Shown: positions 7,930-63,990 of the stretch, piece after piece
Numbering within the stretch: position 1 is the stretch's first letter
How the letters are laid out: each line of letters begins with the position of its first letter
Assembly (NCBI RefSeq): GCF_032062105.1
Contig: NW_026937503.1
Span: 1-64,000 of the forward strand
Length of the DNA stretch: 64,000 bases
Direction: 5' to 3'
Source: Saccostrea cucullata
Taxonomy: Eukaryota
Program-made: the position numbers and the translations under genes
Notes under the pieces: model-generated
Databases searched by the model: none
What the model was told of the DNA's origin: nothing
The model's input: the letters and a program-made list of their open reading frames with translations, nothing else

Positions 7930-9440
7930 GTATGCCCTTCGTATACTGGATTATGACAGTGCCTATGGTTTCCTGGACTTCTTTCTTCTTTCTGAAAAAA
8001 AAAAATATTTTTTCAAGTTTGGAAAATGAAGCAATTCAAATGTTTAAGATCTGACGAATATTGTTGGTGTGACAAAAAATGAAATCTCTGTTTATCTCCA
8101 AAACTCCTTTTCTCTTCATTACGTGTTGGTTCGGGTGATGTCGTAAAGAAAAATAAAGTTACATTAATGATTTCTGATTCAGGTTCCTTCCTCTGTAAAA
8201 TATTTTTAATTTTCTGCAAAATTGAGTTTTTTAAACTAATCCAGAAATTCAACTGCTTCCGCAAAGGAATCTGAAGAACAAAACAACTACTATTGAACAA
8301 AATGGCATGTAAAACTTTGCATCTGTTCTTGCAATTCAGAACTTTCCTGTTTTGGTCAAGTGCGTCTTGGTCCAAATTTTTCTTGAGAAGCAATGAACCC
8401 AGGTCTTATTATGTGTTAGAGTATCAGACAAATATGAATAACTATCGCTGCAGATTGTAGCTCTCTGAAAATATATATACACTGAGTATTTATTGCACAC
8501 AAAAAGTTGTGCTTAGTTCTGAACTAATTCTTTCAATTCTTTCCTTAAAACCAAAAAAAAAAAGATATTTTTTTTTATATTCCTTACTCCGAGATGAAGT
8601 ACTCTCGTATTTCATATCTGCAATGTTGGACTGAATTATCTTGCAAACCAAAACGGCAGTATATATAGACAAAATTTTTTATCACGATTTCAGGTCAGGA
8701 CGGCTTTTAACAACAATTATAAAGAATGTTTTGTTGTGGAAACAGTATAAGAAAATGTTAGGAATTCCTGGTCAGTAATATTTTGAGATGAAGTTTAAAA
8801 ATGTGGAGAAATAAATCGAGAAAACAGCGCACTTTTTTGTGCGCAATAATCATACAGTTTTTACAATGTGTGGCACTGAAGCTTTCCGGTCTGTCAATAT
8901 ATTTTTTTCGGAGAGCTACAGATCTGCAGCTAGGATAACTACGCCTAAAAATTCTTAAAAGTAATTGTTTTGATATTCTTACACGCTATCATTTCATTCT
9001 TTGGTCAAAACAGGATAACCATTGTGTACCTAGCTTTTTCAGAGCCTTTCTCTAAAATAATGTGAACTACCCACAAAAATATGCCTATTAAATTTGCTAT
9101 GCGATTTAATCTCAATCAAACATCATCAGTGAATATTTGTTGAATTTTGCAAAACGTTACACACATTGTTGCAAGTCCTAGTCGCCAAGTACAGTACCAA
9201 TATTTGATGCCCATTATTTTCTTTTTGGTCGTTGAAATTCCCCCTGCTCATGTGTCTATAAAACAAATACGTGTTGCTGTAAATATTACTTATTTCCGTG
9301 AATATTTCCTTGGGATTCTTTCCAGCTTTTACAGTATCTTTTACGAAGCTTTGAATTTCAGTCATGTTTACGTCCTCAGTAGTCAAAAAATTGAGACGAA
9401 AGAGAACTCTTCTTTCCATAAAATGTTTTGTAGGCCTTGA
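7930..9440 (-). mobile_element. Degraded mariner-derived element, related to 18472-20123 and 49592-50922
   Basis: EIQSFVKDTVKAGKNPKEIFTEISNIYSNTYLFYRH resembles a mariner N-terminal HTH; 7930-8390 is visibly similar to 18960-19430. Confidence 0.55.
8447..8931. mobile_element. MITE-like insertion with terminal inverted repeats
   Basis: Left gctgcagattgtagctctctgaaaa versus right ttttcggagagctacagatctgcagc. Confidence 0.55.
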
Positions 9441-18304: not shown

Positions 18305-20630
18305 AAGATATCCCTGTCTTTTTTCGGATGAGATATTAGAAAAAAAATGTTCCAGTCATCAGCAAATTGAAACATATTCAAAATTAATCAGTCATCAGTC
18401 GTACTAAATATAGATTAAACATTTATTTAAAAAAAATATCAAACGGTAGTTTTAGCATGATCAATAAAAAATACGGGGGCTGTTCAATTAAGGAATGTTT
18501 TTAAGTTTTGTGTGAGTTATTGAAGCTAGCGCTTCATGAAAAATATGCCTACGTGCAAGTCTGTGTGATTCACACTCCAATAATTCACACTAAACTGAAA
18601 AACATTCCTTATATTTACATTTTACCTGTTTGGAAGCAACTAAAATATACTCAATATTTGAATTTCTCGCTGATTTTTACTAACGTCGCTACAGCCTCAT
18701 AGTGACGACACGTTTACGCACGTTTCTCCATGTATATTTCTACACGTGAGTATACACAGAAATGACTTTCAAATCAATTTCACAGTTGGCTTAGTAGAAA
18801 AACACAGCAAATGTAAATATTAGATAAAATCCTCGATGCTTGGAAAGAAAAAAAAAACGCTTTTCAATGATGTAGTCTTAATGATTTTACGTAAAATTCT
18901 TTTAAAATGTTTTTAAACATTTTTAACTAATGCCTGATTGTTTTTATAACTCATTTTTGAGTATGACCCTTCGTATACTTGAAAATGGCAGATCCCATGA
19001 TTTCAATGACTTGATACTTCTTTCTGAAAAGATTTTTTTCAAGTTTGGAAAATGAAACAAGTCACAAGGTGAAAGATCTGGCGAATATTGTTGGTGTGAC
19101 AAAACATTAACTTTCTGTTTATCCCCAAAGCTCCTTCACTTTTAAGGACATGCTGTTTTGGATAGTGTCATGAAGAAATTTAATGTAGCGGATTCCTGAT
19201 TTTGGTTCCTCCCTCTCATAAACCTTTCGATTTTTGCAAAGAGTTTGCTTTCTAGACTCCTTCAGAATTTAAAATGCATCCATGAGTATGAATTTGAACA
19301 ACAAGACCAGTAATATTTAAGAAAATGGCATATAAATCTGTCTTTGTGCTTCTGTAATTCTTTCCTCTTCTCAGACCTTTTCTGTTTTTGTCAGGTATAT
19401 CTTATTGTAAATTTTGTTTCGAGGGTTTTAAGCAATAGATACAAGTTTCATTATCTATTTGAATTTCAGACAAATGTTAATAAGTCAATTTCTTATGTTT
19501 TAAAATAATTGTTTAGATATTCTTACACGCTGTCATTTTCAATATTTTTTTTTTTCAAAACATAGGGTGACCTTTGAATACTTAGCTTTCACTGTTAAAT
19601 GTTTCTTAATGATGTCTATCAAATTCATCTATATTCACTAAAACTATCTTCAAGTCAATCATACATAATCAGTGATTATTTGTTGAATATTGGCAAACAG
19701 TACATTGGTTGTTACAATTTCTTGTCGCCAAGGTCGGTGCCCTTTTTTGATGCTCGTTATATTATGTTTGTTCATTGAAATCCACCTGCATATGTGTCTA
19801 TAAAACAGACATTGGTTGCTGTAAATTTGATTATTTCTTTGGATTCTTAACCAGTTTTTCAGCAGCCTTGATGAAGCGCTTAATTTCATTCTATAGTTTT
19901 TTTTATTCTTTACCTTTCATTTTTAATGCAGTGTCTCGAATAGCCCTTTTTCTCTAGCTTTTCACAATGAAACTATGTGATTAAAAGTGGTTACATGAAC
20001 TGTTACAAATTCATTAAAGATCCAATAATGAGAGAAATTCAAGCTTAATGTCATATGATATCTATGTTGTATGTCATAGAGTTATTAGTCTTAGAGGACA
20101 TTATGTATTGAGCAGCCTTCGTAATTAAAATAATGGACTTTTGAGTCTGATTACCGTTAGTTATCTCCATACATGTATATTTCATTAACTAATTTGAACA
20201 GCATGGAACCTCCTTTTAATCTTACATGTTCAAATGTAATTGTTTTAAGGGCTGTGGATGGAAAAGGTTGTTTCATGAAAAAAGCATTGGAATATAACAA
20301 TAAAATTTTAATTTAAAACTCATTAATTTTTCAAGTTAATTAATTTCACCAGAATCGACTGTTTTAACCAACCTATTAATTGTACAAATAACCAAAGAAA
20401 TTATTCATATAAATAGTGAAAAGTTAAGTATTATCATTTGTATTCAAAAACAAAATTTTATGCACTTATAACATACATCAGTAAAATGCACAAATAAATC
20501 CTTCCGCATGGTTCGGACCTACAATTTCCCGTCTCTAGCGCTCAAATTAAGTTCAAGATGTTTGGAATTTTGCATGCTCTTTCGAAAAAACCATTTTCCT
20601 CGGATGAGACCTTAAACACTGACGTCCCGT
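18305..20630 (+). repeat. Segmental-duplication block, paralogous to 49425-51416
   Basis: Near-colinear high similarity by eye, including the mariner element and both flanks; 16120-16650 also matches 46470-46990. Confidence 0.9.
18472..20123 (-). mobile_element. Non-autonomous mariner-like element, copy 1 (extra ~330 bp insert at 18500-18830)
   Basis: TIRs tacgggggctgttcaattaaggaatg and cattatgtattgagcagccttcgta; HTH relic at 19660-19890. Confidence 0.7.
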
Positions 20631-21187: not shown

Positions 21188-22085
21188 TGTCGTTGTTGTC
21201 GTTGTCGGCGTAAACTTTTCACATTTTCAGCTTGAACTCCTCAATGACCACTGGGCCAATTTCAACCAAACTTACCACAAAGTATTCTTGGATGAAGGGG
21301 ATTCAAGTTTTTTAAATGAAGAACCAAGACCTCTTCCAAGGGGAGATAATTATGAATAAATGAAAAATTAATGGCATCTTTTAAAAATCTTCTTCTACAG
21401 AACCACTGTGCCAGGAAAGATGGAACTTATAGAAAAGCATCCTCAGGTAGTGTAGATTCAAGTTTGTTCAAATCTTGACCCCTGGGGGTAGGGCGGGGCC
21501 AAAATGGCCGCTCAAAGTTTAACATAGAAATACATGGGAAAATTATTTTGAAATGTTCTTCTCAAGAACCACTGTACCAGGAGAGATGAAACTTATATGA
21601 AAGCATCCTCAGGTAGTGTAAATTGAAGTTTGTTCAAATCATGACCCCTGGGGGTAGGGCGGGGCCACAATGGCCGCTCAAAGTTTAACATAGAAATACA
21701 TGGGAAAATTATTTAAAAATGTTCTTCTCAAGAACCACTCTGCCAGGAGAGATAAAACTTATAGGGATGCACCCTGGGGTAGTGTAAATTGAAGTTTGTT
21801 CAAATCATCACCCCTGGGGGTAGGGCGGGGCCACAATGGCCGCTCAAAGTTTAACATAGAAATACATGGGAAAATTATTCAAAAATGTTCTTCTCAAGAA
21901 CCACTCTGCCAGGAGAGATAAAACTTATAGGGAAGCAGCCTCAGGTAGTGTTTATTCAAGTTAGTTAAAATCATGACCCTTGGGGGCAGGGTGAGGCCTC
22001 AATGGCCGCTCAAAATTTTAAATTAATATATAGGAAAATTCTTTAAAAATCTGCTTCTCAAGAACCACTGTGCCAAGAAAAATGA
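21128..22085 (+). mobile_element. HINE (Helentron non-autonomous) element carrying ~5 copies of a 166-bp Cg170/HindIII-like satellite
   Basis: 5' ttagctcacctgagccgaaggctcaagtgagct hairpin, (GTC/GTT)n tract, aaccact recurring at 21401, 21567, 21733, 21899, 22063. Confidence 0.85.
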
Positions 22086-22089
22086 AACT

Positions 22090-22400
22090 TTTAATACTAC
22101 ACATAATGATGAATGTACTGTATATAATGTGAGAAGTACGTAATATATTGTTGTCTTTACTGCATATAATGTTAGAACTACCGCATATAATGTTAGAACT
22201 ACCGCATATAATATTAGAACTACCGCATATAATGTTAAAAGCACTTCATATAATGATAGATGTACATAATATAATGACATATCTACATCATATAATGAGA
22301 TAAGTACTGCATATAATGGAGGTTGTAAACGATATAAAGTAAAAACTACTTCATATTATAAAAATAGTACCGCATATAATGAAGGAAACACTGCATATAA
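22090..22400. repeat. 21-bp minisatellite (gcatataatgttagaactacc-like)
   Basis: Directly visible; translates to (LTLYAVV)n on the minus strand. Confidence 0.85.
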
Positions 22401-42799: not shown

Positions 42800-43560
42800 A
42801 AGAGCAAAGTGTCTTCTGAAGTCCTTCTTATGCAAAAGAGGTTACAATGCCCGCACCGTACAAACAGCTAATGATGAGATGGCGGGAAATGACAGGAAAA
42901 ACCTATTACGCTACAAGTAGAAAGACAATAGCGGGACGGTCCCTCTGGTAACCATATACGATCCCGTCCTTAAAAACCTTAGCGGTATCCTTCAAAAGAA
43001 CCTACCAATTCTCCATTCAAACAAACGAATGGCAGAGGTCTTTCAGAAACCCCCATTAACCGCATACAGACGCCCAAGGAACCTAAAGGACATGGTAGTA
43101 AGAACCAGACTGGACAACCCATTACCTAACGGGGGCTTTATAACTTGCTCTGAGAGAAGAGGTCTTCTTCGTAAGAACAGCACTGACACAGACAGTTTTA
43201 ACAGCCCTGCTTCAGGCCGCAGCTACAAAATACTAGGGAATTTGTCCTGTCATACTGACAACTGCATTTACATGTATCTCATCAGCTGCAAAGTTTGCTC
43301 CAAACAGTATATTGGTGAAACAGGAGATCTCTGCAGTAAAGTCAATAACCACCGTTCGACCATTAGGACCAAAAATTAAATGAACCCGTTGTTGAACATT
43401 TCAACCTTGAGGGTCACAAATGGGAGGACATGACAGTAGTGGTGATTTACCATAACCCAAGATGTACAGATGCTCAGAGAAAAAAGCAAAGAAAAGTTCT
43501 GGATGCACAGATTGAAATCAATCCGCACAATGGTATTAACAAACTTAGTGACTTCGCCAG
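42800..43560 (+). mobile_element. C-terminal-EN PLE (Neptune-like) 3' fragment with GIY-YIG endonuclease
   Basis: RGY...PPLTAYRRPRNLKDMVVR...NCIY(MY)LISCKVCSKQYIGETG...NNHRSTI...EHF...KFWMHRLKS...GIN; disrupted. Confidence 0.85.
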
Positions 43561-43896
43561 AATGAATGTAAACTAGACCCAATTCCTGATGATACTAAAC
43601 AAGTTTATTCTCTCAATTTAGTGTAAACTCTACAGTTAATTTGCGTTACCAACTCTAGAACAACTCACATAACCATGTATTGCTTACGCCTTTGTTAATT
43701 ATTTTTTTCCCATAATCAGTCCTAAAACATTGCAGAATTTTTTAAATAGATCATAATTCATATTTTTTTAAAATCCATGCTACATTATTTTTCTTTGATT
43801 ATTCTTTATCAAGTATAGTTACGCTATTTTGAGAGAATGAAACAATTTACTAAACTACTAAACACTAGATATTTACATACTTAATTACATTGAATA

Positions 43897-49230: not shown

Positions 49231-49591
49231 TTAATATCATTATTGAGTCTGACGTGTATAACCCTTAAAGATCTATATTGAACATAAAAAACAAAATATC
49301 AGGATATGCAAAATGTATCAAACCAAAGTACTTTCGGGGACCACACCAATAAACTTCGGAAACGACGCATTAATATATATTGCTGATTCAAAATTAACAT
49401 CAAAGACTTCGTGATTTTACTTCATAAGATATCCCTGTCATTTTTCGTATGAATAATTAGAAAAAATTGTTCCAGTCATCAGCAAATTGAAACATATTCA
49501 AAATTAATCAGTCACCAGTCGTACTAAATATAGATTAAACATTTATTTAAAAAAAAATATCAAACGGTAGTTTTAGCATGATCAATAAAAA

Positions 49592-50922
49592 TACGAGGGC
49601 TGTTCAATAAATAATGTCCTCGTTGCTTGGAAAAAAAAGCTTTTCAATGATGTAGTCTTAATGATTTTACGTAAAAATTCTTTTTAAAATAAGATACACG
49701 TCCGTAACATTTTTAACTAATGCCTGATTGTTTTTATAACTCATTTTTGAGTATGTCCCTTCGTATACTTGAAAATGGCATATCCTATGATTTCATTGAC
49801 TTGTTACTTCTTTCTGAAAAGATTTTTTTCAAGTTTGGAAAATGAATCAAGTCACAAGGTGAAAGATCTGGCGAATATTGTTTGTGTGACAAAACATTAA
49901 CTTTCTGTTTATCCCCAAGCTCCTTCACTTTTAAGGACTTGCTGTTTTGGACGGTGTCATGAAGAAATTTAATGTAGCGGATTCCTGATTTTGGTTCCTT
50001 CCTCTCATAAACCTTTCGATTTTTTGCAAAGATTTTGCTTTCTAGACTCCTTCAGAATTAAAAATGCATCCGCGAGTATGAATTTGAACAACAAGACCAC
50101 TAATATTTAAGAAAATGGAATATAAATCTGTTTTTGTGCTCCTGCAATTCTTTCCTCTTCTCAGACCTTTTCTGTTTTTGTCAGGTATATCTTATTGTAA
50201 ATTTTGTTTCGAGGGTTTTAAGCAATAGATACAAGTTTCATTATCTGTTTGAATTTCAGACAAACGTTAATAAGTACAATTTCTTATGTTTTAAAATAAT
50301 TTAGATATTCTTACACGCTATCATTTTCAATATTTCTTTTTCAAAACATAGGGTGACCTTTGAATACTAAGCATTCAGTGTTAAATGTTTCTTAATTATA
50401 TCTATCAAATTTATCTATCTTCACTAAAACTATCGGCAAGTCAATCATACATAATCAGTGATTATTTGTTGAATATTGGCAAACAGTACATTGGTTGTAA
50501 CAATTCCTTGTCGCCAAGGTCGGTGCCCATTTGTGATGCTCATTATATTATGTTTGTTCATTGAAATCCACCTGCATATGTGTCTATAAAACAGACATAT
50601 GGTTGCTGTAAATTTGACATATTTCAGTGATTATTTCTTTAGGATTCTTAACAAGTTTTTCAGCAGCTTTGATAAAGCGCTCAATTTCACACTATAGTTT
50701 ATTGATTCTTCACCTTTCATTTTTAATGCAGTGTCTCGAATAGCCCTTATTCTCTAGCTTTTCACAATGACACTATGTGATGAAAAGTGGTTACATAAAC
50801 TGTTCAAATTCATTAAAGATCCAATAATGAGAGAAATTCAAGCTAAATGTCAAATGATATCTATGTTATATGTCATAGAGTTATTAGTCATAGAGGACAT
50901 TATTTATTGAGCAGACTTCGTA
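49592..50922 (-). mobile_element. Non-autonomous mariner-like element, copy 2
   Basis: TIRs tacgagggctgttcaataaataatgtcctc and gaggacattatttattgagcagacttcgta. Confidence 0.75.
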
Positions 50923-51375
50923 ATTAAAAAAATGGACCTTTGAGTCTGATTACTGTTCGTTATCTCCACACATGTATATTTCATTAATTAATTTGAACAG
51001 CATGGACCCTCACTTTAATCTTACATGCAAAAATGTAATTGTTCATGGTCTGTGAATGGAAAAGGTTGTGTTTCATGAAAACAGCATTGGAATATAACAA
51101 TAAATTTTTAATTTAAAACTCATTAATTTTTCAAGTTAATTAATTTCACCAGAATCGACTGCTTTAACCAACCTATTAGTTGTACAAATAGCCAGAAAAA
51201 TTGTTCATATAAATAGTGAAAAGCTAAGTATTATCATTTATAATCAAAAACAAAATTTTATGCACTTATAATATACTTCAGTAAAATGCACAAATAAATC
51301 CTTCCGCATGGTTAGGACCTACAATTCCCCGTCTCTAGCGCTCAAATTAAGTTCAAGATGTTTAAATTTTGCATG

Positions 51376-51416
51376 CTCTTTCGAAAAAAGCATTTTCCTC
51401 GGATGAGACCTTATAC
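51376..51416 (+). repeat. Left copy of ~41-bp target-site duplication
   Basis: ctctttcgaaaaaagcattttcctcggatgagaccttatac is identical to 63950-63990; single copy at the paralogous site 20577-20617. Confidence 0.92.
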
Positions 51417-51461
51417 TGTAAAATAAAGTTGCCACCCGGCACCACGTGTGCCGACGGAAGA

Positions 51462-51534
51462 GGACCTGACACCTGAATCGGTGTTTCGGGCACATTTTAG
51501 GAATGTTCCAGGGTCTGCCACTCATCAGAGGTCC
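51462..51534 (-). ncRNA. Type I hammerhead ribozyme (family A, 3' copy)
   Basis: Minus strand GGACCU-CUGAUGA-G(U)GGCA..UGCCC-GAAA-CACC gauuca GGUG-UC^AGGUCC; all core nucleotides and stems I-III present. Confidence 0.9.
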
Positions 51535-51981
51535 AACCCAAATTAAGTTATCATATTTTAGTTGTATATCTCTGGCATGGTGGTGTTTCATGCAATAATA
51601 TTTGTAGTGGACATGTATTCTGTTACTGTTCCACTAATTAAGCTTTGTGAATAAAAAGCTTTATGTTTTGGATATGTCAATGAATAAGACAATATCAAGG
51701 AGAATTAATATTCTCTGTGGTGCGAGCTTAAATTGTTTGCTCGTCTTGTTTTGTGGTACATGTTGTACTAAACGGCTCTTAGATAGAGCTGCAGTTGAGA
51801 TTCGTTAGAATCGGGCGGGGCGACCGTCACATAGTCGCGCTGGAAGAGTTAATGCACGTGGCACGAGAAAGCGCATTGGTTGTTTGTTTGGAGTGTTGGG
51901 TAATTGACAGCCACCTGTTCCCTGATATCTGCTTTGCATGCTTTTCGCTATCACGGATTGTCTGATTTGTTAATTGATATG

Positions 51982-53955
51982 CTATCTGTTCGAGTTTAAG
52001 AGCTCATTTAAGTTTCTATTTCGCTTGTATCCAATGATAGGAGGCATAGGAAATAACTCAGAACACTGTTTATCCTTTTGAATTAATTTCCAATGTTTGC
52101 GTAATATTTTCCCCAGTTTTCTGACTGCAGGATTGTACTTGGTAACAAGCACAGAGGGCGGTCTGTTAGATTTAGTCTTGCTATTTTTTAGCAATTCCTG
52201 TCTATTAATTGTTTGCGTTTCTGAAACAATACTGTCTATTTCAGATTCCGAGTACCCCCTTGATATAAGTCGTTCCTTGAACTGTGAAATTAATTGTTTG
52301 GTTTTGTGTGGGTCAGAGGTGTTCCTCTTATGACGGATAATTTCCCCCTTAATAAATCCTCTGAAGGTAGCATTGGGATGTGCACTGCTGCGATGCAGAT
52401 ACATAAATGTTTCTGTAGGTTTGATGAAAGTTTCAAAGTCTAAGACTCCGGACTGTTTAAATCTCTGTCCTTTGTAGACTTTTGTGTCCAGAAACACAGT
52501 CCCGTTTAAGTGAATATTGTATGTAAATTTCAGGTATTTGTGCTCCTGATTTGCAAGTTCAAAAAACTGCAGTATTTCACTTTCTGTGGCGTCCATTGCC
52601 ATAAAACCGTCATCTCTGTATCTAAAGTGAGCCAGAATTTTGTTTTTATGATTGTATTTTTTGATAATATTTTCAAGGATATCAAAAAGGCGCAGGTCAC
52701 ATATCTCGGGGGACGGGACCGCCCCCATACTGGCTCCTAATATTTGTTTATACAGGTGACCATTAAATTCAAATTCATTGTTCTCTAACAGAATTTGTAA
52801 CAATTTGATTAGGTAACTGATATCTGGGATCGGTATTGTAACATCAGTTTGTTTCAATTTTGTGAGTGCTTTTGCTGCAGATTGGAGAAGTTCCGTGGCT
52901 GTCATGTTAGTATACATGGAAGTTACATCATAGGTAACTAGCCGGGTTTCGGGTTTCAAATGCAGGGATTCAACTTTGCTGATAAAGTGTTTGGTATCTC
53001 TGACATATGTGTGTTGTTTTTGTACTAATGGCACAAGGAAGTAGTCTATGAAGTGCCCTATAGGCATTGTAGGGGAGGCGCATTGAGAGATAATTGGCCT
53101 CCCCGGTATACTCATTCCACGCTGCAGGGCCTCGGCCCCTTTGAAGTTTTCAATGTCAGAAATGCAGATTTTATGTATTTTAGGTAGTAAGTATAACCTG
53201 CCAGGGCGGAATGTAAGGGACTGCGACAGAAATCTGTGGGTAATACTGTCGATTTCAGAATTGATTTGCATTTCACATACAATCTTGTTGATCAGATCGT
53301 GTATTTCATGTGTTCTGTCTTTGTGAATTGCGGCGTAATGAATGCCGTCATTTAAATGTCTTAGTCCCTCCGCTGCATAATTTGTGCGGTTCTGAACTAC
53401 AACAGTAGTAGATTTGTCTGCCTTTTTTATTACAATGTTTGTCTCGTTTCGGAGACTGGTCAGCGCATTCCGCTCTTTTTTTGTTAAATTATCTCTAAAT
53501 TTGTGAAAGTGGATTTTACATAGCTCCATTTTGGTTGCATAGAGATAATTTTCTAAAGCTGTGCACGTTGTGTTGCCGGGATTATAATTCGTATTGATAT
53601 ATAAGGGATGCAATTGTTTATCATCCTCATTTGTATGAAAGAGTATCTTGCATCTCATTTTCCTGGCTAGTTCATTGAAGCTACAGATCAAATTCTGTCT
53701 TATATTTTGCGTCCCTGGTGTGGGAATAAATTTGAGACCTTTGCTAAGTAAAGATGTTTCAGCTTCAGACAGAGTATAATCTGAGAGATTGAGAACATTG
53801 TTATTAGTGTTCTCTGACAGGCGTTTAATACGCCTGATATTGCGAGCTTTTCTGTTGTTCGCTCGTCTTATTTTATATTTTTTCTGTTTTTGCGTTTTGG
53901 AGAGCCTCCTGCTAGGCATGTTAGCGTAGTGCCGATCTGGGAGCCAAATCTGCAT
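51982..53955 (-). CDS. PLE reverse transcriptase without GIY-YIG domain (family A, 657 aa; alternative start 53919)
   Basis: NLSDYTLS..LLSKGLKFIP, IKKADK, YLLPKIHK, PGRPIIS, YDVTSMYTN, YKQILGASMG, RYRDDGF, FLDT, YLHRSSAHP, RGY; stops right after YKRNRNLNELL. Confidence 0.95.
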   Translation of the reverse strand: MQIWLPDRHYANMPSRRLSKTQKQKKYKIRRANNRKARNIRRIKRLSENTNNNVLNLSDYTLSEAETSLLSKGLKFIPTPGTQNIRQNLICSFNELARKMRCKILFHTNEDDKQLHPLYINTNYNPGNTTCTALENYLYATKMELCKIHFHKFRDNLTKKERNALTSLRNETNIVIKKADKSTTVVVQNRTNYAAEGLRHLNDGIHYAAIHKDRTHEIHDLINKIVCEMQINSEIDSITHRFLSQSLTFRPGRLYLLPKIHKICISDIENFKGAEALQRGMSIPGRPIISQCASPTMPIGHFIDYFLVPLVQKQHTYVRDTKHFISKVESLHLKPETRLVTYDVTSMYTNMTATELLQSAAKALTKLKQTDVTIPIPDISYLIKLLQILLENNEFEFNGHLYKQILGASMGAVPSPEICDLRLFDILENIIKKYNHKNKILAHFRYRDDGFMAMDATESEILQFFELANQEHKYLKFTYNIHLNGTVFLDTKVYKGQRFKQSGVLDFETFIKPTETFMYLHRSSAHPNATFRGFIKGEIIRHKRNTSDPHKTKQLISQFKERLISRGYSESEIDSIVSETQTINRQELLKNSKTKSNRPPSVLVTKYNPAVRKLGKILRKHWKLIQKDKQCSELFPMPPIIGYKRNRNLNELLNSNR

Positions 53956-54649
53956 TGATTGCTAAGAAAAGTGAACAAGGTATGATCAACAGGGGTTCCC
54001 TGGGGGTGTAATTCAACCGCACAGATTAACATGCGGGTTTATCTTGGGGCACCGGCAGGCATGCGTTTACTTCTTAGGTGCAGTAAAGATCTGTGAATAC
54101 CTGCATGATGCAATAGGTAAAAAGCATGATTATATTATTTGACATCAAGCTTGCTGCGGGACAAAGTATAGGTTCTGTCCAGCAGGATGGGGATATGGTG
54201 TGTGTTCAAACCCTGAGGTTAAGAGTGACACTGAGAATTCTTGTAGATGTTGCAGTCAGGTTAATTTCTAGTTGGCGCACATTGTGCAATTGTAATTGTA
54301 AATTCCCTTGTTTTGGTGATTGTATCAATAAACGCCTTTTTATGCACTATGAGGTATGCCAAACCATACCTATAGTTGAAGATGGAGATAGACTATGACT
54401 GTTAACTGTGATTTATTGTACATATATTTTAATATGTTAAGGTTTTCATAGTACAAAATATGTTTGTTTTAAGTTTATAAGCTCAATGTACAATAAACGT
54501 TTCTTCTTTAAATGGTTCATAAGTTTGATATGGCGGTAGATCTTACCATATGTATAAGCAGTCCAACAATATCAATTGTCCCGTGTATATACACGTAAGA
54601 TATGGCGTTCAACCATCACAATTGATTATATGACAGGTAACTAATCATG

Positions 54650-55480
54650 TCACTTATGAGTTGGATCTTGTAGCATATTGGTCAATTTCCTTAGTTCTTG
54701 GATAATAGACGGTTGGGCGGTCCTGGATCTTCTCTGAGCATTGTCACGTCCTCTAGACCATGGTCTAGGCTGGCTGGTCCTTGGGCGTTTCTGCTCGTCA
54801 TGTCTAGCGGGTGCACGCATTTTGTATTGATTTATCTTCTCAGTCCACTTTTGTTTGAGAACTTCCAGGTCAGAAAAGAATTTGGCCCGGTGAGTGCCCG
54901 CTTCACGATCATTTATCGTTAATTTGTTTTTGGTCTCGGTTACTTTTTCCTTGATTTCCTCGTTTTTTTCGCGGATGATATGTGCACATTTTTCTTGTAG
55001 TGTGGTTATGAGTTTGAGGAGCCCCTTCTGATGGAGGTCTTTGATGATACCCTTAAATATTTCCTGGCTAACTTCATCACAGCTTGCTGTAAAGTTTATC
55101 TGAAAGCTGAGGAAGGCGGGTAGATTTGGGTTTTCCGCACCGGTGTCCACCTGGTCGATGCAATGTTTGATGGTGGCGATTCTGTGTCTTTTAAACATAA
55201 GAGTGTCAACTTCCTTGATGGTGCTCTCCACCATTTTTTGGTATTCTTCACTTTTACTCGCTGATGCGACGAGTGTTGTTTCGTTTAGGTCCAGATCAGG
55301 ATCACTATCGTACATGTAGTCGGGTGGTGTGTCCTTTTGTTTTTGGCCCGGTGTAGGGTAGCTGTGCGTCAAATCAAGATTGTCAGTCTCCATGTCATTG
55401 TTATCCATATTTGCCATATTCCAATGTAGCAATGGAGGGATAAAACTGCTTTTGGTGGATTTACGGAGACCTGAGGACAT
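54650..55480 (-). CDS. Family A ORF1: acidic N-terminus, predicted coiled coil, Arg-rich C-terminus (open to 55669; ATGs at 55480 and 55417)
   Basis: Long ORF co-oriented with and upstream of the RT, inside the repeat unit; K/E-rich helical stretch, then KRPRTSQPRPWSRGRDNAQRRSR. Confidence 0.75.
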   Translation of the reverse strand: MSSGLRKSTKSSFIPPLLHWNMANMDNNDMETDNLDLTHSYPTPGQKQKDTPPDYMYDSDPDLDLNETTLVASASKSEEYQKMVESTIKEVDTLMFKRHRIATIKHCIDQVDTGAENPNLPAFLSFQINFTASCDEVSQEIFKGIIKDLHQKGLLKLITTLQEKCAHIIREKNEEIKEKVTETKNKLTINDREAGTHRAKFFSDLEVLKQKWTEKINQYKMRAPARHDEQKRPRTSQPRPWSRGRDNAQRRSRTAQPSIIQELRKLTNMLQDPTHK

Positions 55481-56190
55481 TTGTTGTGAATTCAGAATTC
55501 TTAATGACACTTGGATCTTATAAAAAGTGTTTATGTAGTTTTGTGGGGGGTACGTCCTAATTAAGCGTAATTCCCCGCTATTGAAATGTGACCGAGCTGC
55601 ATATAGGTGTTGAGTTTGATTTATTAGCATCCATGTGAAATTGTGAATTTCAATTTCCGCTGAGATCAAGGGAAGTGGGGGATTGGTGTGAGTTACGGTT
55701 TGTTAGAACCGAATGACAGCCTGAGAATTGGCTGTATGAGGTTTTTGTATCCCTTGCAGGTGTTTGTGGATGGTGGACTTTGGTTTAATTTATGAGATGA
55801 CAGGCGCAGTGTTTGATTGCAAGACAATACTCTATCGTATATATTGATTGTGTATTGTATATTTCGCTCTGTCCTCTGTGTTAAACTTAGTTTGGTTCTG
55901 GCAGATCTATAGTGGGATCTGGCGCAAGTATTTTACTTTATTAGAGGAGTTCATGTAATAAATGATATTTTGCTATTTTGATTTAGAAAGTTCAGTTTGT
56001 TAAAGAAGTTCGTTAAAATATAGTGTGTGCCCGGAACACCAATAATGGTGACACGTGCCTCAACCGACCTAGCACACGGATCGAGAATGGATTCCAAATC
56101 GATACACGGGAGGGTGACAAGGGGTACGAGGTACCAAGATCACAGTGTAAAATAAAGTTGCCACCCGGCACCACGTGTGCCGACGGAAGA

Positions 56191-56263
56191 GGACCTGACA
56201 CCTGAATCGGTGTTTCGGGCACATTTTAGGAATGTTCCAGGGTCTGCCACTCATCAGAGGTCC
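56191..56263 (-). ncRNA. Type I hammerhead ribozyme (family A, 5' copy)
   Basis: Identical to 51462-51534. Confidence 0.9.
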
Positions 56264-56710
56264 AACCCAAATTAAGTTATCATATTTTAGTTGTATATCT
56301 CTGGCATGGTGGTGTTTCATGCAATAATATTTGTAGTGGACATGTATTCTGTTACTGTTCCACTAATTAAGCTTTGTGAATAAAAAGCTTTATGTTTTGG
56401 ATATGTCAATGAATAAGACAATATCAAGGAGAATTAATATTCTCTGTGGTGCGAGCTTAAATTGTTTGCTCGTCTTGTTTTGTGGTACATGTTGTACTAA
56501 ACGGCTCTTAGATAGAGCTGCAGTTGAGATTCGTTAGAATCGGGCGGGGCGACCGTCACATAGTCGCGCTGGAAGAGTTAATGCACGTGGCACGAGAAAG
56601 CGCATTGGTTGTTTGTTTGGAGTGTTGGGTAATTGACAGCCACCTGTTCCCTGATATCTGCTTTGCATGCTTTTCGCTATCACGGATTGTCTGATTTGTT
56701 AATTGATATG

Positions 56711-57220
56711 CTATCTGTTCGAGTTTAAGAGCTCATTTAAGTTTCTATTTCGCTTGTATCCAATGATAGGAGGCATAGGAAATAACTCAGAACACTGTTT
56801 ATCCTTTTGAATTAATTTCCAATGTTTGCGTAATATTTTCCCCAGTTTTCTGACTGCAGGATTGTACTTGGTAACAAGCACAGAGGGCGGTCTGTTAGAT
56901 TTAGTCTTGCTATTTTTTAGCAATTCCTGTCTATTAATTGTTTGCGTTTCTGAAACAATACTGTCTATTTCAGATTCCGAGTACCCCCTTGATATAAGTC
57001 GTTCCTTGAACTGTGAAATTAATTGTTTGGTTTTGTGTGGGTCAGAGGTGTTCCTCTTATGACGGATAATTTCCCCCTTAATAAATCCTCTGAAGGTAGC
57101 ATTGGGATGTGCACTGCTGCGATGCAGATACATAAATGTTTCTGTAGGTTTGATGAAAGTTTCAAAGTCTAAGACTCCGGACTGTTTAAATCTCTGTCCT
57201 TTGTAGACTTTTGTGTCCAG
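56711..57220 (-). pseudogene. 5'-truncated duplicate of the family A RT C-terminus (part of the pseudo-LTR)
   Basis: Matches 51982-52491. Confidence 0.9.
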
Positions 57221-57634
57221 TTTGGATCTTATTTAATGTACAATAATTTCATAATGTATAGACCAGTCTAATACTTGTACATTTTAACTACTCTGACGTT
57301 TTTAATAACATTGATATTATCAAGGAAGCTACATCTTTGTTTGTTTTGAATGCAATATTCCTTATATTATAATCTCTAATTATTTTAGAACTTGTGTTTT
57401 TACTTCTTAAAACATTTGACCAACAACATGGTCACCTATTGGTTGATTGTATTAGCTTCAGTTTGACTGAAAGGAGGCGTGGCTATTCGCTTCTGCGCGC
57501 TTCTTTCATCTTCTTGACATTGCTTTTATTTAGCCAGTGCGAGTAAGCACGGCAGGATTAATTTTTGTGCCACTTATTTGTTTGCTTTGCAAATTATACA
57601 CGGAAATTTTATTATCAATTACGTATGTGCCTTA

Positions 57635-57766
57635 TACCCTCTATTAATACGCTCAGACGTATTATAGACGTGGTGTTATTATAATTAATCGGCACTTATT
57701 GGTTTACCCTCTATTTATACGCTCAGACGTATAATAGACGTGGTGCTTTTTTATATTATCAGCAAC
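57635..57766 (+). repeat. 70-bp-period imperfect duplication upstream of the family B RT (also ~61605-61736)
   Basis: taccctctatt(a/t)atacgctcagacgtat(t/a)atagacgtggtg at 57635 and 57705. Confidence 0.85.
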
Positions 57767-57840
57767 ATCATTTATCCTCTGAGATAATTAATTCAATCTT
57801 AAACCATTAGAGTTATAAGATATTCAAGCCGTTTCTAACA

Positions 57841-59787
57841 ATGGCGCGACGTTTCAGGCGTCTAGATAAACAGAAGAAAAGTGTATTAAGAGCGTCTAAT
57901 GCATTTGCTCATAAACAACGTATTCACAGAGCAAGCGTAATAAATGCAAAAAAATTTGTTCTTAATTTATCCTCATGTGGTCTTCAAGATAACGAATACA
58001 TACTGCTAGCCAAAGGACTTAAATTCATCCCGTCACCACAAAGCAGCAATGTCAAAAGGTTTCTCCTAAAGGACTTTGACGAGTTTTCTAGAAAACTCAG
58101 ATGCAAATTCTTCTTTGATACCGGGGAAAATAATAAACTTCATCCCTTCAGAACATCTACTGGTTATAAACCCGATCAGGCATGCGGTGCTCTTGAAAAT
58201 TATATTGACAAAACCAAATTAGAATTATCATCTATGCCAATAAAACAATATCGGGATAATTTAACTAACCAGGAAAGGGCGGCATTGGTCTCATTAAAAA
58301 ACAATCGCCATATTGTAATCAAAAAAGCTGATAAAAGTAACACTGTGGTCATCATGGACAGAGATAAATATGTCACTGAAGCTTTACGTCAACTTGAATC
58401 AAAACACTACCTTGAAGTTGAAAAACCTGATTTGTCACATTTACGTAATACCATACAAGAAAAAATATCTGATATGTTTATTGGAGGAGCTTTAGACAAA
58501 GAAACATATCGTTATCTAAGTGATAGCGATTCGTCCCTTAAATGCGGACATTTATACTTGCTCCCTAAAATACACAAGATCAAAGATAAAATCATGACTG
58601 CCCTTATGAACGGCACTTGCAGCCTCAGACGGCTACCACCTGGGCGACCAATTATTTCACAATGCGATACACCAACACATAGGATTGGTGCTTACTGTGA
58701 TTATTTTCTTATCCCGATTGTTCAAAAACAATCGACGTACATAAAGGATACTACGGATTTCATCAATAAAATCGAAGCCTTATGCTTACCATCGCAAATC
58801 ATACTGATCACTTATGATGTTACAAGTATGTATACTAACATGGAGTTTGATGAATTATTAAGCGCTGTTGAAGAGGCCTACCGAAATAACAAACGAGATT
58901 TATCAGATCTGCCTTATCCCGAGGTCTCAGATCTCCTCTTTCTTCTAAAGTGCATACTTGAAAATAATTATTTTGAGTTTAATGGAAAATATTACAAACA
59001 AATAATCGGTTGCGCAATGGGTTCAACTGTTTCCCCTGAGGTATCTGATATAAGAATGTTCCAGATAACTCAATCAATCATGGCGCAATTTCAATATGCC
59101 AATAAAGTCTTGTTTCACGGCAGATTTAGAGATGATGGTTTTATTATTTTCAACGGGTCTGAGAATGAGATTCTTGATTTCTTTCAAATTGGCAATCAAT
59201 GCCACCCGCATTTGAAATTCACTTTTGAAATCTCAATTGACTCTGTGAATTTTTTAGACACAACAGTGTACAAAGGAAGAAAATTCCAAGAATCCAACAA
59301 ACTAGATATTAAGTCGTACATTAAACCAACAAATAATTTTCAATATCTACACAGAGAAAGCTCTCACAACCCAGCAGTATTCAAAGGTTTCATTAAGGGA
59401 GAATGCATTAGACATATGAGAAATACCAATGACAATGCAACCCTCAGCACAATCCTACAAGACTTCAAGAAACACTTGTCAAAGAGAGGCTACTCTGATA
59501 CAGAAATAGACCCTATTATCACAGACGTAACTGGAACGGACAGAAATAAGATGCTAAACAAAAACAACAGTGAATCTAAACTCTGCAATCCATTAGTTAT
59601 GGTTACAAAATATAATCCGAGAATCAAAGGATTAAAAAGACGCATCTTAAAATATTGGAATGAAATGAAAACAGACACAAGATGCAAAGAAATATTTACA
59701 TCGGAACCAGTTGTAGCTTATAGCAAGCACAAAAGCATAGGAGATATGATTATAAGATCACGTTTACCACAAGAATACAACTGCTAA
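57841..59787 (+). CDS. PLE reverse transcriptase without GIY-YIG domain (family B, copy 1, 648 aa)
   Basis: LAKGLKFIP, IKKADK, YLLPKIHK, PGRPIIS, YDVTSMYTN, YKQIIGCAMG, RFRDDGF, FLDT, YLHRESSH, RGY; ends AYSKHKSIGDMIIRSRLPQEYNC*. Confidence 0.95.
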   Translation: MARRFRRLDKQKKSVLRASNAFAHKQRIHRASVINAKKFVLNLSSCGLQDNEYILLAKGLKFIPSPQSSNVKRFLLKDFDEFSRKLRCKFFFDTGENNKLHPFRTSTGYKPDQACGALENYIDKTKLELSSMPIKQYRDNLTNQERAALVSLKNNRHIVIKKADKSNTVVIMDRDKYVTEALRQLESKHYLEVEKPDLSHLRNTIQEKISDMFIGGALDKETYRYLSDSDSSLKCGHLYLLPKIHKIKDKIMTALMNGTCSLRRLPPGRPIISQCDTPTHRIGAYCDYFLIPIVQKQSTYIKDTTDFINKIEALCLPSQIILITYDVTSMYTNMEFDELLSAVEEAYRNNKRDLSDLPYPEVSDLLFLLKCILENNYFEFNGKYYKQIIGCAMGSTVSPEVSDIRMFQITQSIMAQFQYANKVLFHGRFRDDGFIIFNGSENEILDFFQIGNQCHPHLKFTFEISIDSVNFLDTTVYKGRKFQESNKLDIKSYIKPTNNFQYLHRESSHNPAVFKGFIKGECIRHMRNTNDNATLSTILQDFKKHLSKRGYSDTEIDPIITDVTGTDRNKMLNKNNSESKLCNPLVMVTKYNPRIKGLKRRILKYWNEMKTDTRCKEIFTSEPVVAYSKHKSIGDMIIRSRLPQEYNC

Positions 59788-59790
59788 GGT

Positions 59791-59930
59791 GGACCCCTGA
59801 TGAGGCGGGCCTTAGGGCATATAGCCGTTTTTTTAAAAAACCGCCGAAACACTCTTTACTATATAATGATGTATGAATCAAAATTAAAATTAAAAAAATG
59901 TCACAAAGTTTGGTTAAGAGTGTCGGGTCC
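59791..59930 (+). ncRNA. Type I hammerhead ribozyme with enlarged loops (family B, copy 1)
   Basis: GGACCC-CUGAUGA-GGCGG..(32 nt)..CCGCC-GAAA-CACUCUU..(59 nt)..AAGAGUG-UC^GGGUCC; begins 3 nt after the RT stop codon. Confidence 0.9.
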
Positions 59931-60293
59931 TAATAAATTTCATGAACAGTTTGGCTGATTGATGTCCTTTTTCTCACACCTTGTATCTAGGGACAATGTC
60001 CCACAGGCATCATCCCACAGGCATCATCCCGTGAATCGCCTTCTTTGAACGCGATCGACTTGTTCTTAATTTATTGGGGCTTCTCCCTCTGACCATTTTC
60101 GACATTTTTATTGAAACCAAAAGAACAGTAACACATTAACGCTTCCTAGCTAATTTTTTCATCCGCTTATAATGGGAGACCTCTTGAACATCACAGAATT
60201 CGATTGATTTATTACAATCTAAGGAGTGATACCGAGATTGACATCTCAAAGTTATATAGTTAAATTCTGCACAATTACAACACTTAAGACGTA

Positions 60294-61031
60294 ATGCTAC
60301 AAAGACTTAGTCGACTTTCTCTGAAAAAAGCAACCAAAGCTAACATGGATGACGATTTCCAGATACCGTCAAACCAAGAAGCCTTGTCACAGATTGATGA
60401 TTTGGATTTAAAAATCCGTTTACCGGACGCAAATAATACCTACACGAGAGCTACAGAAAATGGATTGGCTGAAATATCAAAAACTCTCAAAGAACGACTC
60501 TAACTAATTAGTCTAATTCATGGTAACAGGACCGGGAATTACCCTACATGGTATAATGTAAACACAAAGTGTTTCCTAAACCTACCTAATGAGCAGGAGG
60601 AGCAGAAATTCAGGAGTTTCTGGAAAGAACTGAGCAACGCCATCGAAAAACAAGCCTCGCAGAAAGTAATAGACTTCCTCGCAAACCAAATCAAGGAAAA
60701 GGAAAATGAGGCCAACAGGATTAGGGCTGAGAACATAAAGCGTGTAGGTTTTGCTACAGAGGAAAGTGCCTCTATCAGAAAACAGTTGGACACAGACATC
60801 CTCAATCTACACAATGAAAACACAAAGGAACTGGAGGATTACCGCAGGCATTTGGGCTCTATGCAACAGAGCTCCTCTAACTCTAGGACTGCAACAGCCT
60901 CCAAGGCCCCAGGAAGGAACACCCGAGTACCTCGGAAGGACTGGAATCATCACAACCAAAGAAACTCTTTCTCAGGTTATCGTCCTCAAGAGAAAAGAGG
61001 TCAATTCCGACGAAGATACCACCCATATTAA
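60294..61031 (+). CDS. Family B ORF1 (245 codons, one in-frame TAA at 60501-60503): predicted coiled coil, basic tail ending RRRYHPY
   Basis: ORFs 60294-60503 and 60786-61031 are in the same frame and the sequence between them is open (LISLIHGNRTGNYPTWY...FRSFWKEL...IKEKENEANRIR). Confidence 0.75.
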
Positions 61032-61810
61032 CAGTCTTACATGTGGACTTGAAACATCCTCTCATCTGGTGATGTTTATTTTTAATTATCTGTGCGTACT
61101 ATAATTACTACAAACAATAGTGACATCTGCAATATGGAAAACTTTACTAGTGAGGTCTATCGAATATTCGGGCGGATTAAAAATATTATGCAGTTTGGAT
61201 CTTATTTAATGTACAATAATTTCATAATGTATAGACCAGTCTAATACTTGTACATTTTAACTACTCTGACGTTTTTAATAACATTGATATTATCAAGGAA
61301 GCTACATCTTTGTTTGTTTTGAATGCAATATTCCTTATATTATAATCTCTAATTATTTTAGAACTTGTGTTTTTACTTCTTAAAACATTTGACCAACAAC
61401 ATGGTCACCTATTGGTTGATTGTATTAGCTTCAGTTTGACTGAAAGGAGGCGTGGCTATTCGCTTCTGCGCGCTTCTTTCATCTTGACATTGCTTTTATT
61501 TAGCCAGTGCGAGTAAGCACGGCAGGATTAATTTCTGTGCCACTTATTTGTTTGCTTTGCAAATTATACACGGAAATTTTATTATCAATTACGTATGTGC
61601 CTTATACCCTCTATTAATACGCTCAGACGTATTATAGACGTGGTGTTATTATAATTAATCGGCACTTATTGGTTTACCCTCTATTTATACGCTCAGACGT
61701 ATAATAGACGTGGTGCTTTTTTATATTATCAGCAACATCATTTATCCTCTGAGATAATTAATTCAATCTTAAACCATTAGAGTTATAAGATATTCAAGCC
61801 GTTTCTAACA

Positions 61811-63757
61811 ATGGCGCGACGTTTCAGGCGTCTAGATAAACAGAAGAAAAGTGTATTAAGAGCGTCTAATGCATTTGCTCATAAACAACGTATTCACAGA
61901 GCAGGCGTAATAAATGCAAAAAAATTTGTTCTTAATTTATCCTCATGTGGTCTTCAAGATAACGAATACATACTGCTAGCCAAAGGACTTAAATTCATCC
62001 CGTCACCACAAAGCAGCAATGTCAAAAGGTTTCTTTTTAAGGATTTTGACGAATTTGCTAGAAAACTCAGATGCAAATTCTTCTTTGATATCGGTGAAAA
62101 TAATAAACTTCATCCCTTCAGAACATCTACTGGTTATAAACCCGATCAGGCATGCGGTGCTCTTGAAAATTATATTGACAAAACCAAATTAGAATTATCA
62201 TCTATGCCAATAAAACAATATCGGGATAATTTAACTAACCAGGAAAGGGCGGCATTGGTCTCATTAAAAAACAATCGCCATATTGTAATCAAAAAAGCTG
62301 ATAAAAGTAACACTGTGGTCATCATGGACAGAGATAAATATGTCACTGAAGCTTTACGTCAACTTGAATCAAAACACTACCTTGAAGTTGAAAAACCTGA
62401 TTTGTCACATTTACGTAATACCATACAAGAAAAAATATCTGATATGTTTATTGGAGGAGCTTTAGACAAAGAAACATATCGTTATCTAAGTGATAGCGAT
62501 TCGTCCCTTAAATGCGGACATTTATACTTGCTCCCTAAAATACACAAGATCAAAGATAAAATCATGACTGCCCTTATGAACGGCACTTGCAGCCTCAGAC
62601 GGCTACCACCTGGGCGACCAATTATTTCACAATGCGATACACCAACACATAGGATTGGTGCTTACTGTGATTATTTTCTTATCCCGATTGTTCAAAAACA
62701 ATCGACGTACATAAAGGATACTACGGATTTCATCAATAAAATCGAAGCCTTATGCTTACCATCGCAAATCATACTGATCACTTATGATGTTACAAGTATG
62801 TATACTAACATGGAGTTTGATGAATTATTAAGCGCTGTTGAAGAGGCCTACCGAAATAACAAACGAGATTTATCAGATCTGCCTTATCCCGAGGTCTCAG
62901 ATCTCCTCTTTCTTCTAAAGTGCATACTTGAAAATAATTATTTTGAGTTTAATGGAAAATATTACAAACAAATAATCGGTTGCGCAATGGGTTCAACTGT
63001 TTCCCCTGAGGTATCTGATATAAGAATGTTCCAGATAACTCAATCAATCATGGCGCAATTTCAATATGCCAATAAAGTCTTGTTTCACGGCAGATTTAGA
63101 GATGATGGTTTTATTATTTTCAACGGGTCTGAGAATGAGATTCTTGATTTCTTTCAAATTGGCAATCAATGCCACCCGCATTTGAAATTCACTTTTGAAA
63201 TCTCAATTGACTCTGTGAATTTTTTAGACACAACAGTGTACAAAGGAAGAAAATTCCAAGAATCCAACAAACTAGATATTAAGTCGTACATTAAACCAAC
63301 AAATAATTTTCAATATCTACACAGAGAAAGCTCTCACAACCCAGCAGTATTCAAAGGTTTCATTAAGGGAGAATGCATTAGACATATGAGAAATACCAAT
63401 GACAATGCAACCCTCAGCACAATCCTACAAGACTTCAAGAAACACTTGTCAAAGAGAGGCTACTCTGATACAGAAATAGACCCTATTATCACAGACGTAA
63501 CTGGAACGGACAGAAATAAGATGCTAAACAAAAACAACAGTGAATCTAAACTCTGCAATCCATTAGTTATGATTACAAAATATAATCCGAGAATCAAAGG
63601 ATTAAAAAGACGCATCTTAAAATATTGGAATGAAATGAAAACAGACACAAGATGCAAAGAAATATTTACATCGGAACCAGTTGTAGCTTATAGCAAGCAC
63701 AAAAGCATAGGAGATATGATTATAAGATCACGTTTACCACAAGAATACAACTGCTAA
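61811..63757 (+). CDS. PLE reverse transcriptase without GIY-YIG domain (family B, copy 2, 648 aa)
   Basis: Five amino-acid differences from 57841-59787. Confidence 0.95.
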   Translation: MARRFRRLDKQKKSVLRASNAFAHKQRIHRAGVINAKKFVLNLSSCGLQDNEYILLAKGLKFIPSPQSSNVKRFLFKDFDEFARKLRCKFFFDIGENNKLHPFRTSTGYKPDQACGALENYIDKTKLELSSMPIKQYRDNLTNQERAALVSLKNNRHIVIKKADKSNTVVIMDRDKYVTEALRQLESKHYLEVEKPDLSHLRNTIQEKISDMFIGGALDKETYRYLSDSDSSLKCGHLYLLPKIHKIKDKIMTALMNGTCSLRRLPPGRPIISQCDTPTHRIGAYCDYFLIPIVQKQSTYIKDTTDFINKIEALCLPSQIILITYDVTSMYTNMEFDELLSAVEEAYRNNKRDLSDLPYPEVSDLLFLLKCILENNYFEFNGKYYKQIIGCAMGSTVSPEVSDIRMFQITQSIMAQFQYANKVLFHGRFRDDGFIIFNGSENEILDFFQIGNQCHPHLKFTFEISIDSVNFLDTTVYKGRKFQESNKLDIKSYIKPTNNFQYLHRESSHNPAVFKGFIKGECIRHMRNTNDNATLSTILQDFKKHLSKRGYSDTEIDPIITDVTGTDRNKMLNKNNSESKLCNPLVMITKYNPRIKGLKRRILKYWNEMKTDTRCKEIFTSEPVVAYSKHKSIGDMIIRSRLPQEYNC

Positions 63758-63760
63758 GGT

Positions 63761-63900
63761 GGACCCCTGATGAGGCGGGCCTTAGGGCATATAGCCGTTT
63801 TTTTAAAAAACCGCCGAAACACTCTTTACTATATAATGATGTATGAATCAAAATTAAAATTAAAAAAATGTCACAAAGTTTGGTTAAGAGTGTCGGGTCC
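63761..63900 (+). ncRNA. Type I hammerhead ribozyme (family B, copy 2)
   Basis: Identical to 59791-59930. Confidence 0.9.
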
Positions 63901-63949
63901 TAATAAATTTCATGAACAGTTTGGCTGATTGATGTCCTTTTTCTCACAC

Positions 63950-63990
63950 CTCTTTCGAAAAAAGCATTTTCCTCGGATGAGACCTTATAC
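63950..63990 (+). repeat. Right copy of ~41-bp target-site duplication
   Basis: Identical to 51376-51416; followed by actgaggtcc, which matches the continuation of the empty site (actgacgtcc at 20618). Confidence 0.92.

Follow-up and report, generated by a model that had tools for sequence, protein, structure and literature searches.

Paired hammerhead ribozymes and a two-family insertion in an endonuclease-less Penelope-like element of the oyster Saccostrea cucullata

The window analysed here is a stretch of 64,000 nucleotides from the oyster Saccostrea cucullata (NCBI RefSeq assembly GCF_032062105.1, contig NW_026937503.1, positions 1 to 64,000). It contains element A, a Penelope-like element (PLE) with a reverse transcriptase (RT) resembling that of telomerases, a separate helical protein in a first open reading frame (ORF1) and no GIY-YIG endonuclease (EN). 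Two identical and complete type I hammerhead ribozymes were found on the minus strand of A, with predicted cuts spaced 4729 nt apart and with ORF1 and the RT present once between them (Table 1). To judge from the sequence, the A hammerhead very probably cleaves as a monomer, aided by a pseudoknot. Element A lies head to head with element B, which belongs to a different family of the same clade, and both are enclosed in one target-site duplication (TSD).

Hammerheads of element A and its relatives

Each A hammerhead has a 6-bp stem I (GGACCU/AGGUCC), a 5-bp stem II and a 4-bp stem III (CACC/GGUG, with a 6-nt loop) together with the A15.1-U16.1 pair, and its core (CUGAUGA...GAAA) is intact. The CUGANGA/GAAA core, an NUH triplet, in this case GUC, three helices and an open stem I identify both copies as type I. 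A descriptor scan of both strands of the 64 kb found four cores, two in A and two in B, against a chance expectation of 0.033 cores per Markov-resampled window (30 resamples). No hammerhead match was obtained in an Rfam scan of the window at the gathering score, and the minimum-energy z-scores of the A hammerheads are unremarkable (-0.13 to -1.06).

The paired ribozymes, the single ORF1 and RT between them and an insertion of about 1.2 units (5804 nt, or 1.23 units of 4729) had been proposed in an earlier, sequence-only reading of this DNA and were all recovered here. That reading had also pointed to the identity of the two copies. They are indeed identical, but this is not independent evidence because both lie inside a perfect direct repeat (1075/1075 nt), the pseudo-long terminal repeat (pseudo-LTR) of A. 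The branched stem II that it described was rejected, as the proposed helices GGCA/UGCC and ACAUU/AAUGU overlap in the nucleotide U56221, and what forms is a single unbranched stem with a 5'-side bulge.

The RT of A has 437 homologues. Among the 120 listed, the longest reach no more than 706 aa, the closest named homologue is a Saccostrea oyster protein (99%), and further named ones come from Mytilus, Pinctada and Argopecten; no GIY-YIG-like motif occurs within the last 250 residues of any of these 120 (of 437). By sequence similarity, the named members of the clade of A come from bivalves. In a FastTree phylogeny of 70 rows (24 of the 120 listed proteins, the two window RTs and 44 locus ORFs passing a coverage filter), the RTs of A and B fall inside a 30-row EN-less clade with a support of 100, apart from the GIY-YIG elements. 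This tree was built from fetched sequences only, without named PLE references, and it gave long-branch warnings, so that its deep branches are weak.

Relatives were surveyed in 79 metagenome loci, most of them 1-8 kb long. The regions following the RT were read by eye in six close EN-less relatives (L001, L002, L003, L005, L006 and L057), with L004, L007, L008, L021, L033 and L034 left out. In five of the six, a hammerhead was found soon after the RT stop, one whose stem III spans 3-6 bp and whose inserts are large and variable; three of these five (L001, L002 and L005) are in the tree. L006 has both ORF1 and RT and no intact hammerhead core in its region 880-1650. Among 21 GIY-YIG-bearing loci, minimal hammerheads were observed in eight and convincing full ones in none, a long match in L070 being judged a chance one. 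The claim of a full, monomer-type architecture in A, distinct from the minimal form, is therefore upheld. Palindromic spacer motifs of 6 nt were found in nine other loci, and no relatives of A were found among viral contigs.

Two further groups of observations were made in the surveyed loci. L002 (1-4362) holds a complete unit of ORF1, RT and hammerhead of ~4251 nt with a 111-nt terminal overlap, which is compatible both with a circle and with a collapsed tandem. L024, L026, L027, L035, L036, L037 and L038 represent another EN-less PLE group, in which a helical domain is fused at the N-terminus, and palindromic hammerheads with a 1-bp stem III occur at the ORF start in L035, L036 and L038.

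The 5' bulge of stem II likely forms a pseudoknot that covaries across the relatives compared. A stretch immediately 5' of stem I is complementary to one that follows the 5' strand of stem II, and the pairings differ in sequence, being GGGUU/GACCC in A, CUAAGG/CCUUAG in B, UGACAG/CUGUCA in L001 and UACUGC/GCAGUA in L002. Over seven hammerheads, the native pairing sum was reached by 5 of 5040 re-pairings, for windows picked after the pattern had been seen; tested singly, three of the seven members gave P<0.05 and A was not significant (P 0.2). No good pseudoknot helix was found at the compared segments of L005 and L057. An alternative pseudoknot through the CCUAA loop was rejected, since pairing of the bulge better fits the position used in the relatives. 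Stems I and III also show two-sided changes across relatives, for example U-A versus C-G at the inner stem I pair. Selection on the ribozyme is supported by these compensatory pairs, by the covarying predicted pseudoknot and by the commonest core variant among family A contigs, which falls at the free N7 position (56253); a change at G12 accounts for ~7-12% of contig depth. Hammerhead pseudoknots of this kind are common and raise cleavage rates (PMC3088659).

Copy ends and the two-family insertion

Within the tail of A, depth in DNA contigs from two runs goes up from 6-7 to 100-370, with no dip at the cut; contig depth does not equal copy number, and run X1 is possibly the source sample and not independent. 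Flank junctions at 56139-56158, which is 39-58 nt past the cut, account for eight of the 16 loose-end rows listed among 46, mostly at 56145/6 and 56156/8. By contrast, none of the 16 loose ends and none of four joints lies at the cut itself (56196/56197). The end of B at 59980 was found again in another run. All four cut-site crossings in the window are seamless, and in contigs of other runs the end of a unit is followed by a unit start, for A (joint back 4729) as well as for B (joint back 3973). Because copies end ~50 nt past the cut and also cross it, the template is continuous there, having been religated, left uncut or bridged by a precise jump; the uninterrupted depth and the copies running over the site agree with the earlier proposal of an RNA template continuous across both cut sites. 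Direct templating by a free linear monomer is ruled out: with the RT start 51 nt from the 5' end of the cleaved linear monomer, only ~51 nt could be made.

Some contig joints restart at the tail end (56423 to 56145 with 2 extra letters, and 56448 to 56146 with 951 letters between). Short contig tandems covering 56145-56448 have a ~280-nt unit with a hammerhead and represent retrozyme-sized derivatives of family A.

Elements A and B are joined 5'-to-5' inside a perfect 41-bp TSD (51376-63990), the 5' end of A being at RT codon 477. Their outer 3' ends both face the TSD edges, each at the recurrent tail end of its family, an arrangement that would result from a staggered break whose two 3' overhangs had each primed a cDNA. 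The pair, which is one case, suggests twin priming on two different RNAs. The insertion target is a host repeat of ~1.8 kb with two 92%-identical copies (18380-20627 and 49500-51416) and weaker relatives at 7923-9360. An inverted second RT was found in none of the 79 loci, most of which are only 1-8 kb long.

Head-to-head inverted PLE copies are known (PMC8557442; PMC3846280), and the anole PLE cuts and extends both DNA strands in vitro (PMC11167929). In PMC3846280, inverted copies are ascribed to self-priming, TSDs are 8-10 bp and cross-mobilisation between families was not found. Fold-back self-priming of this type cannot join A and B, as they are only 45% identical in protein, whereas a break primed at both of its ends can. 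No report of a two-family PLE pair or of the A/B clade was found in the literature searched, with most subscription papers, supplements, Repbase and Dfam lying outside the search. At 42800-43570 (+) there is a decayed 3' fragment of an endonuclease-bearing (EN+) PLE, recognised by eye from its thumb and a GIY-YIG-like motif with CxxC, with CTGATGA at 43586; its presence makes an endonuclease acting in trans possible.

A candidate RNA circle and its alternatives

In the mechanism that we propose, cleavage by the full hammerhead would release a 4729-nt unit from the transcript. Its 5'-OH and 2',3'-cyclic-phosphate ends, held by stem I, may be religated by the ribozyme or by RtcB, a step to which we give slightly less than even chances. 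The RT would then start internally ~51 nt past the junction, cross it and run 1.23 laps. That the closed circle is the RT template is likewise a tentative reading, nearly balanced and falling just short of probable. Priming would come from a 41-nt staggered break that A itself had not produced, one of its 3' overhangs serving for A and the other for B, with the two cDNAs meeting at a 3-nt microhomology, and this part of the scheme we hold to be probable. It would be costly for the element to carry a fast ribozyme between its RT start and its body unless the ends were rejoined, which favours the circle. In coral, mussel and axolotl, the RNAs of hammerhead retrozymes have been studied as circles, and RtcB ligates the mussel and axolotl monomers (PMC7229834). 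A circle or more-than-unit model has already been published as a tentative role (Cervera 2014, PMC4209133).

The wider proposition, that an undescribed and widespread EN-less PLE clade of bivalves and other animals replicates through coding RNA circles of 4-5 kb and patches staggered breaks by priming both ends, even across families, appears rather unlikely to hold in full. If it were true, fast pseudoknotted hammerheads would make circles, the clade would supply autonomous partners of retrozymes, and head-to-head PLE inversions would be explained without self-priming.

A number of observations weigh against the circle and the scheme built on it. The two units of B differ by 11 substitutions and a 3-nt indel, so that a single circle copied twice would not be sufficient without template switching or later conversion. 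Eight of these substitutions fall within 61 nt (62035-62095 versus 58065-58125), with four of the seven changed codons synonymous, and this patch appears to derive from a diverged family member through a template switch, a donor difference or conversion. In ViennaRNA folds, which exclude pseudoknots, the stem I probability of A falls from 0.43-0.89 with 8-30 nt upstream to 0.04-0.57 with 60-150 nt, and that of B drops to 0.01-0.13 with a longer upstream flank; cleavage in context may therefore be slow. A circle would also be cut again by a ribozyme active as a monomer, and in the anole PLE, the only one tested in vitro, cleavage is dispensable and uncleaved RNA is the main substrate (PMC11167929). 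No pile-up of transcript starts or ends was seen among 45 reads per oligo-dT run (two runs from a related organism) over 8.7 kb, in libraries that would lose circles. RNA-library contigs cover both units, their ends and strand not being readable. Across the predicted B cut (59905-59938), one poly(A) run contains 14 matching reads of a related family, which shows that this family has some RNA uninterrupted at that point. Finally, the two-family insertion is a single case, and no reads or contigs were seen to span the A-B junction.

Several of these points fit a template consisting of uncleaved read-through transcripts of a tandem array, in which a protein or a competing helix formed upstream keeps the hammerhead inactive and cleavage serves 5'-end formation, cap-independent translation or the limiting of transposition. 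The differing units of B resemble those of a donor array, a competing upstream helix is predicted in A and B in folds without pseudoknots, and type I hammerheads can promote cap-independent translation (PMC13725137). However, more-than-unit daughters would require that neither of the two identical ribozymes cut, a condition expected to favour weak ribozymes such as those of EN+ relatives, whereas the A/B clade retains full stems and a covarying predicted pseudoknot. No competing helix is predicted in L002 or L005, and both are predicted to be actively folded in every context tried (0.71-0.99). We regard uncleaved templates as a serious possibility that is on balance doubtful.

A precise jump of the RT from the 5'-OH end of a cleaved linear monomer to a 3' end, its own or that of another molecule, would also produce continuous copies. 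The contig restarts at the tail end show that discontinuous synthesis occurs, and switching between molecules would account for the mosaic patch of B; even so, such a jump is improbable in view of the four seamless crossings out of four and of a cut site at which none of the 16 listed loose ends and four joints lies. It has further to be considered whether the A-B composite reflects two separate insertions or a misassembly and the tandems arose by DNA recombination, in which case the paired hammerheads would be uninformative on RNA units. Only a single locus is at hand and assemblers are troubled by tandem and inverted PLE structures (PMC8557442), but the perfect TSD around the pair, the known empty site, the canonical family tail ends at both outer edges and the contigs of other runs that link unit end to unit start for A and B make this highly improbable.

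Table 1. Coordinates of elements A and B, their ribozymes and their target site in the window
Feature	Position	Strand	Description
Element A insertion	51417..57220	-	5804 nt, 1.23 units of 4729
A tail	51417..51467	-	51 nt downstream of predicted cut; 6-bp hairpin; presumed RT start region
3' hammerhead of A	51462..51534	-	type I; core 51528; GUC end 51468; predicted cut 51468/51467
A RT ORF	51982..53919	-	645 aa; TERT-like fold; no GIY-YIG domain
A ORF1	54650..55480	-	276 aa; long helices, basic tail
Upstream pseudo-LTR of A	56146..57220	-	RT codons 477-end, 3' untranslated region, hammerhead, tail; 1075/1075 identical to 51417-52491
5' hammerhead of A	56191..56263	-	type I; core 56257; GUC end 56197; predicted cut 56197/56196
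Predicted pseudoknot of A	56240..56268	-	GGGUU (56268-56264) with GACCC (56244-56240); likewise 51539-51535 / 51515-51511
A-B junction microhomology	57218..57220	.	CAG, 3 nt; joins 5' ends of A and B
Element B	57218..63950	+	different family of same clade; 1.70 units of ~3970
B RT ORF copy 1	57841..59787	+	648 aa; repeated as copy 2 (61811-63757); 45% identity with A RT
B hammerhead	59791..59930	+	predicted cut after 59924; stem III 7 bp, 59-nt loop; copy 2 at 63761-63900
B ORF1	60294..61031	+	homologous to A ORF1; in-frame stop 60501-60503
Left TSD copy	51376..51416	+	41 bp; 41/41 identical to 63950-63990
Right TSD copy	63950..63990	+	up to 2 nt overlap with B 3' end
Empty-site paralogue of target	20577..20627	+	uninterrupted; within host repeat 18821-20627

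Comparison with known elements and accompanying features

Element A is a PLE that is neither canonical EN+ nor Athena-type. It has the TERT-related RT and the partial tandem with pseudo-LTR, hammerhead and tail of PLEs, and it has neither the GIY-YIG domain fused to the RT nor the single ORF that canonical EN+ members possess. With EN+ PLEs (Penelope/Poseidon, Neptune, and PAc of Frangieh 2024, PMC11167929) it shares a TERT-like RT, a partial tandem, a pseudo-LTR hammerhead, a TSD, a 30-60-nt tail, two 3'-end clusters and a head-to-head inverted partner; the anole PLE resembles it in its tail and two adjacent internal RT starts (PMC11167929). In contrast to these, A lacks GIY-YIG, its ORF1 is apparently split off, its hammerhead is full, with a predicted pseudoknot, rather than minimal, its inverted partner is another family, and its TSD is 41 bp as against 8-10 bp in Adineta (PMC3846280).

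The absence of an endonuclease is shared with Athena/Terminon and Coprina, and Athena/Terminon also has an upstream ORF of coiled-coil type. Unlike Athena/Terminon, A carries no telomeric-repeat complement after the hammerhead and is an interstitial, TSD-flanked insertion in a host repeat; it is set apart from them by description. Sense-strand CCCUAA was found neither in A nor in the tails of B, where TTAGGG is assumed to be the host telomeric repeat. A large helix III has been described before, in fungal and protist PLEs deficient in EN (PMC4209133). Offshoots of EN+ clades that have lost the endonuclease (the Neptune-like MjPLE01 and Chlamys PLE-X; PMC8557442) likewise obtain the 3'-OH primer from elsewhere; A differs from them in its separate conserved ORF1 family and its hammerhead type, a distinction made by description, and MjPLE01 could be related. 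The C- or N-terminal GIY-YIG of the Hydra, Naiad and Chlamys groups is absent from A, as is the lack of a canonical hammerhead that marks Naiad. Metazoan non-LTR retrozymes also have type I hammerheads one unit apart, and their monomers circularise, as studied in mussel (PMC7229834), but they are ~300 nt long and non-coding, whereas A is 4.7 kb and coding and its circle is a proposal.

The role of the hammerhead in PLEs has been described as 'still unclear' (PMC8557442), and the animal PLE hammerheads that have been investigated to date are minimal and weak. The choice between circular and uncleaved templates can be tested directly in a clade that combines intact-looking copies with ribozymes of monomer type, and two families under one TSD are a natural test of how inverted PLE structures form. 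This testability and the two-family insertion, which suggests how an EN-less element spreads inside chromosomes, are of greater interest than the circle idea.

The proteins of A were examined by structure prediction and profile searches. The RT model is confident (pLDDT 91.9), and telomerases occupy Foldseek ranks 1-9. ORF1, separated from the RT by ~730 nt, is modelled as long helices with disordered ends. No Pfam match was obtained for the RT or ORF1 in the release used, and precomputed PF28514, PF26215 and PF00078 annotations are listed for homologues; a PDB sequence search gave no match and the ESM Atlas no usable match for ORF1. All 50 of 50 ORF1 profile matches are at most 281 aa, which points to a stand-alone family, the failure to find longer forms being weak evidence. 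A profile of A ORF1 and 39 matches, built without the ORF1 of B, detects the latter with an independent E-value (iE) of 2.5e-29, as well as the ORF1s of L002 and L006 (both seed members) and, weakly, L033. This profile also matches the N-termini of two GIY-YIG polyproteins, L017 and L020 (iE 5.7e-5), and not those of the fused EN-less sister group, for which hhalign gave a weak match (probability 11%, E 0.003). On these sequence comparisons, ORF1 is likely to be an N-terminal domain split off from PLE polyproteins.

The anatomy of B is that of A. At the in-frame stop of B ORF1, other contigs and reads show a different base, so that this copy of ORF1 is broken; both RT ORFs of B are open. Two 60-nt repeats, 85% identical and apparently forming a hairpin, lie just upstream of the B RT start in each unit (57635-57764 and 61605-61734) and are a possible translation or promoter signal. 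Elsewhere in the window, a 166-bp tandem array of ~5 copies followed by a 21-bp minisatellite was observed at 21363-22381.

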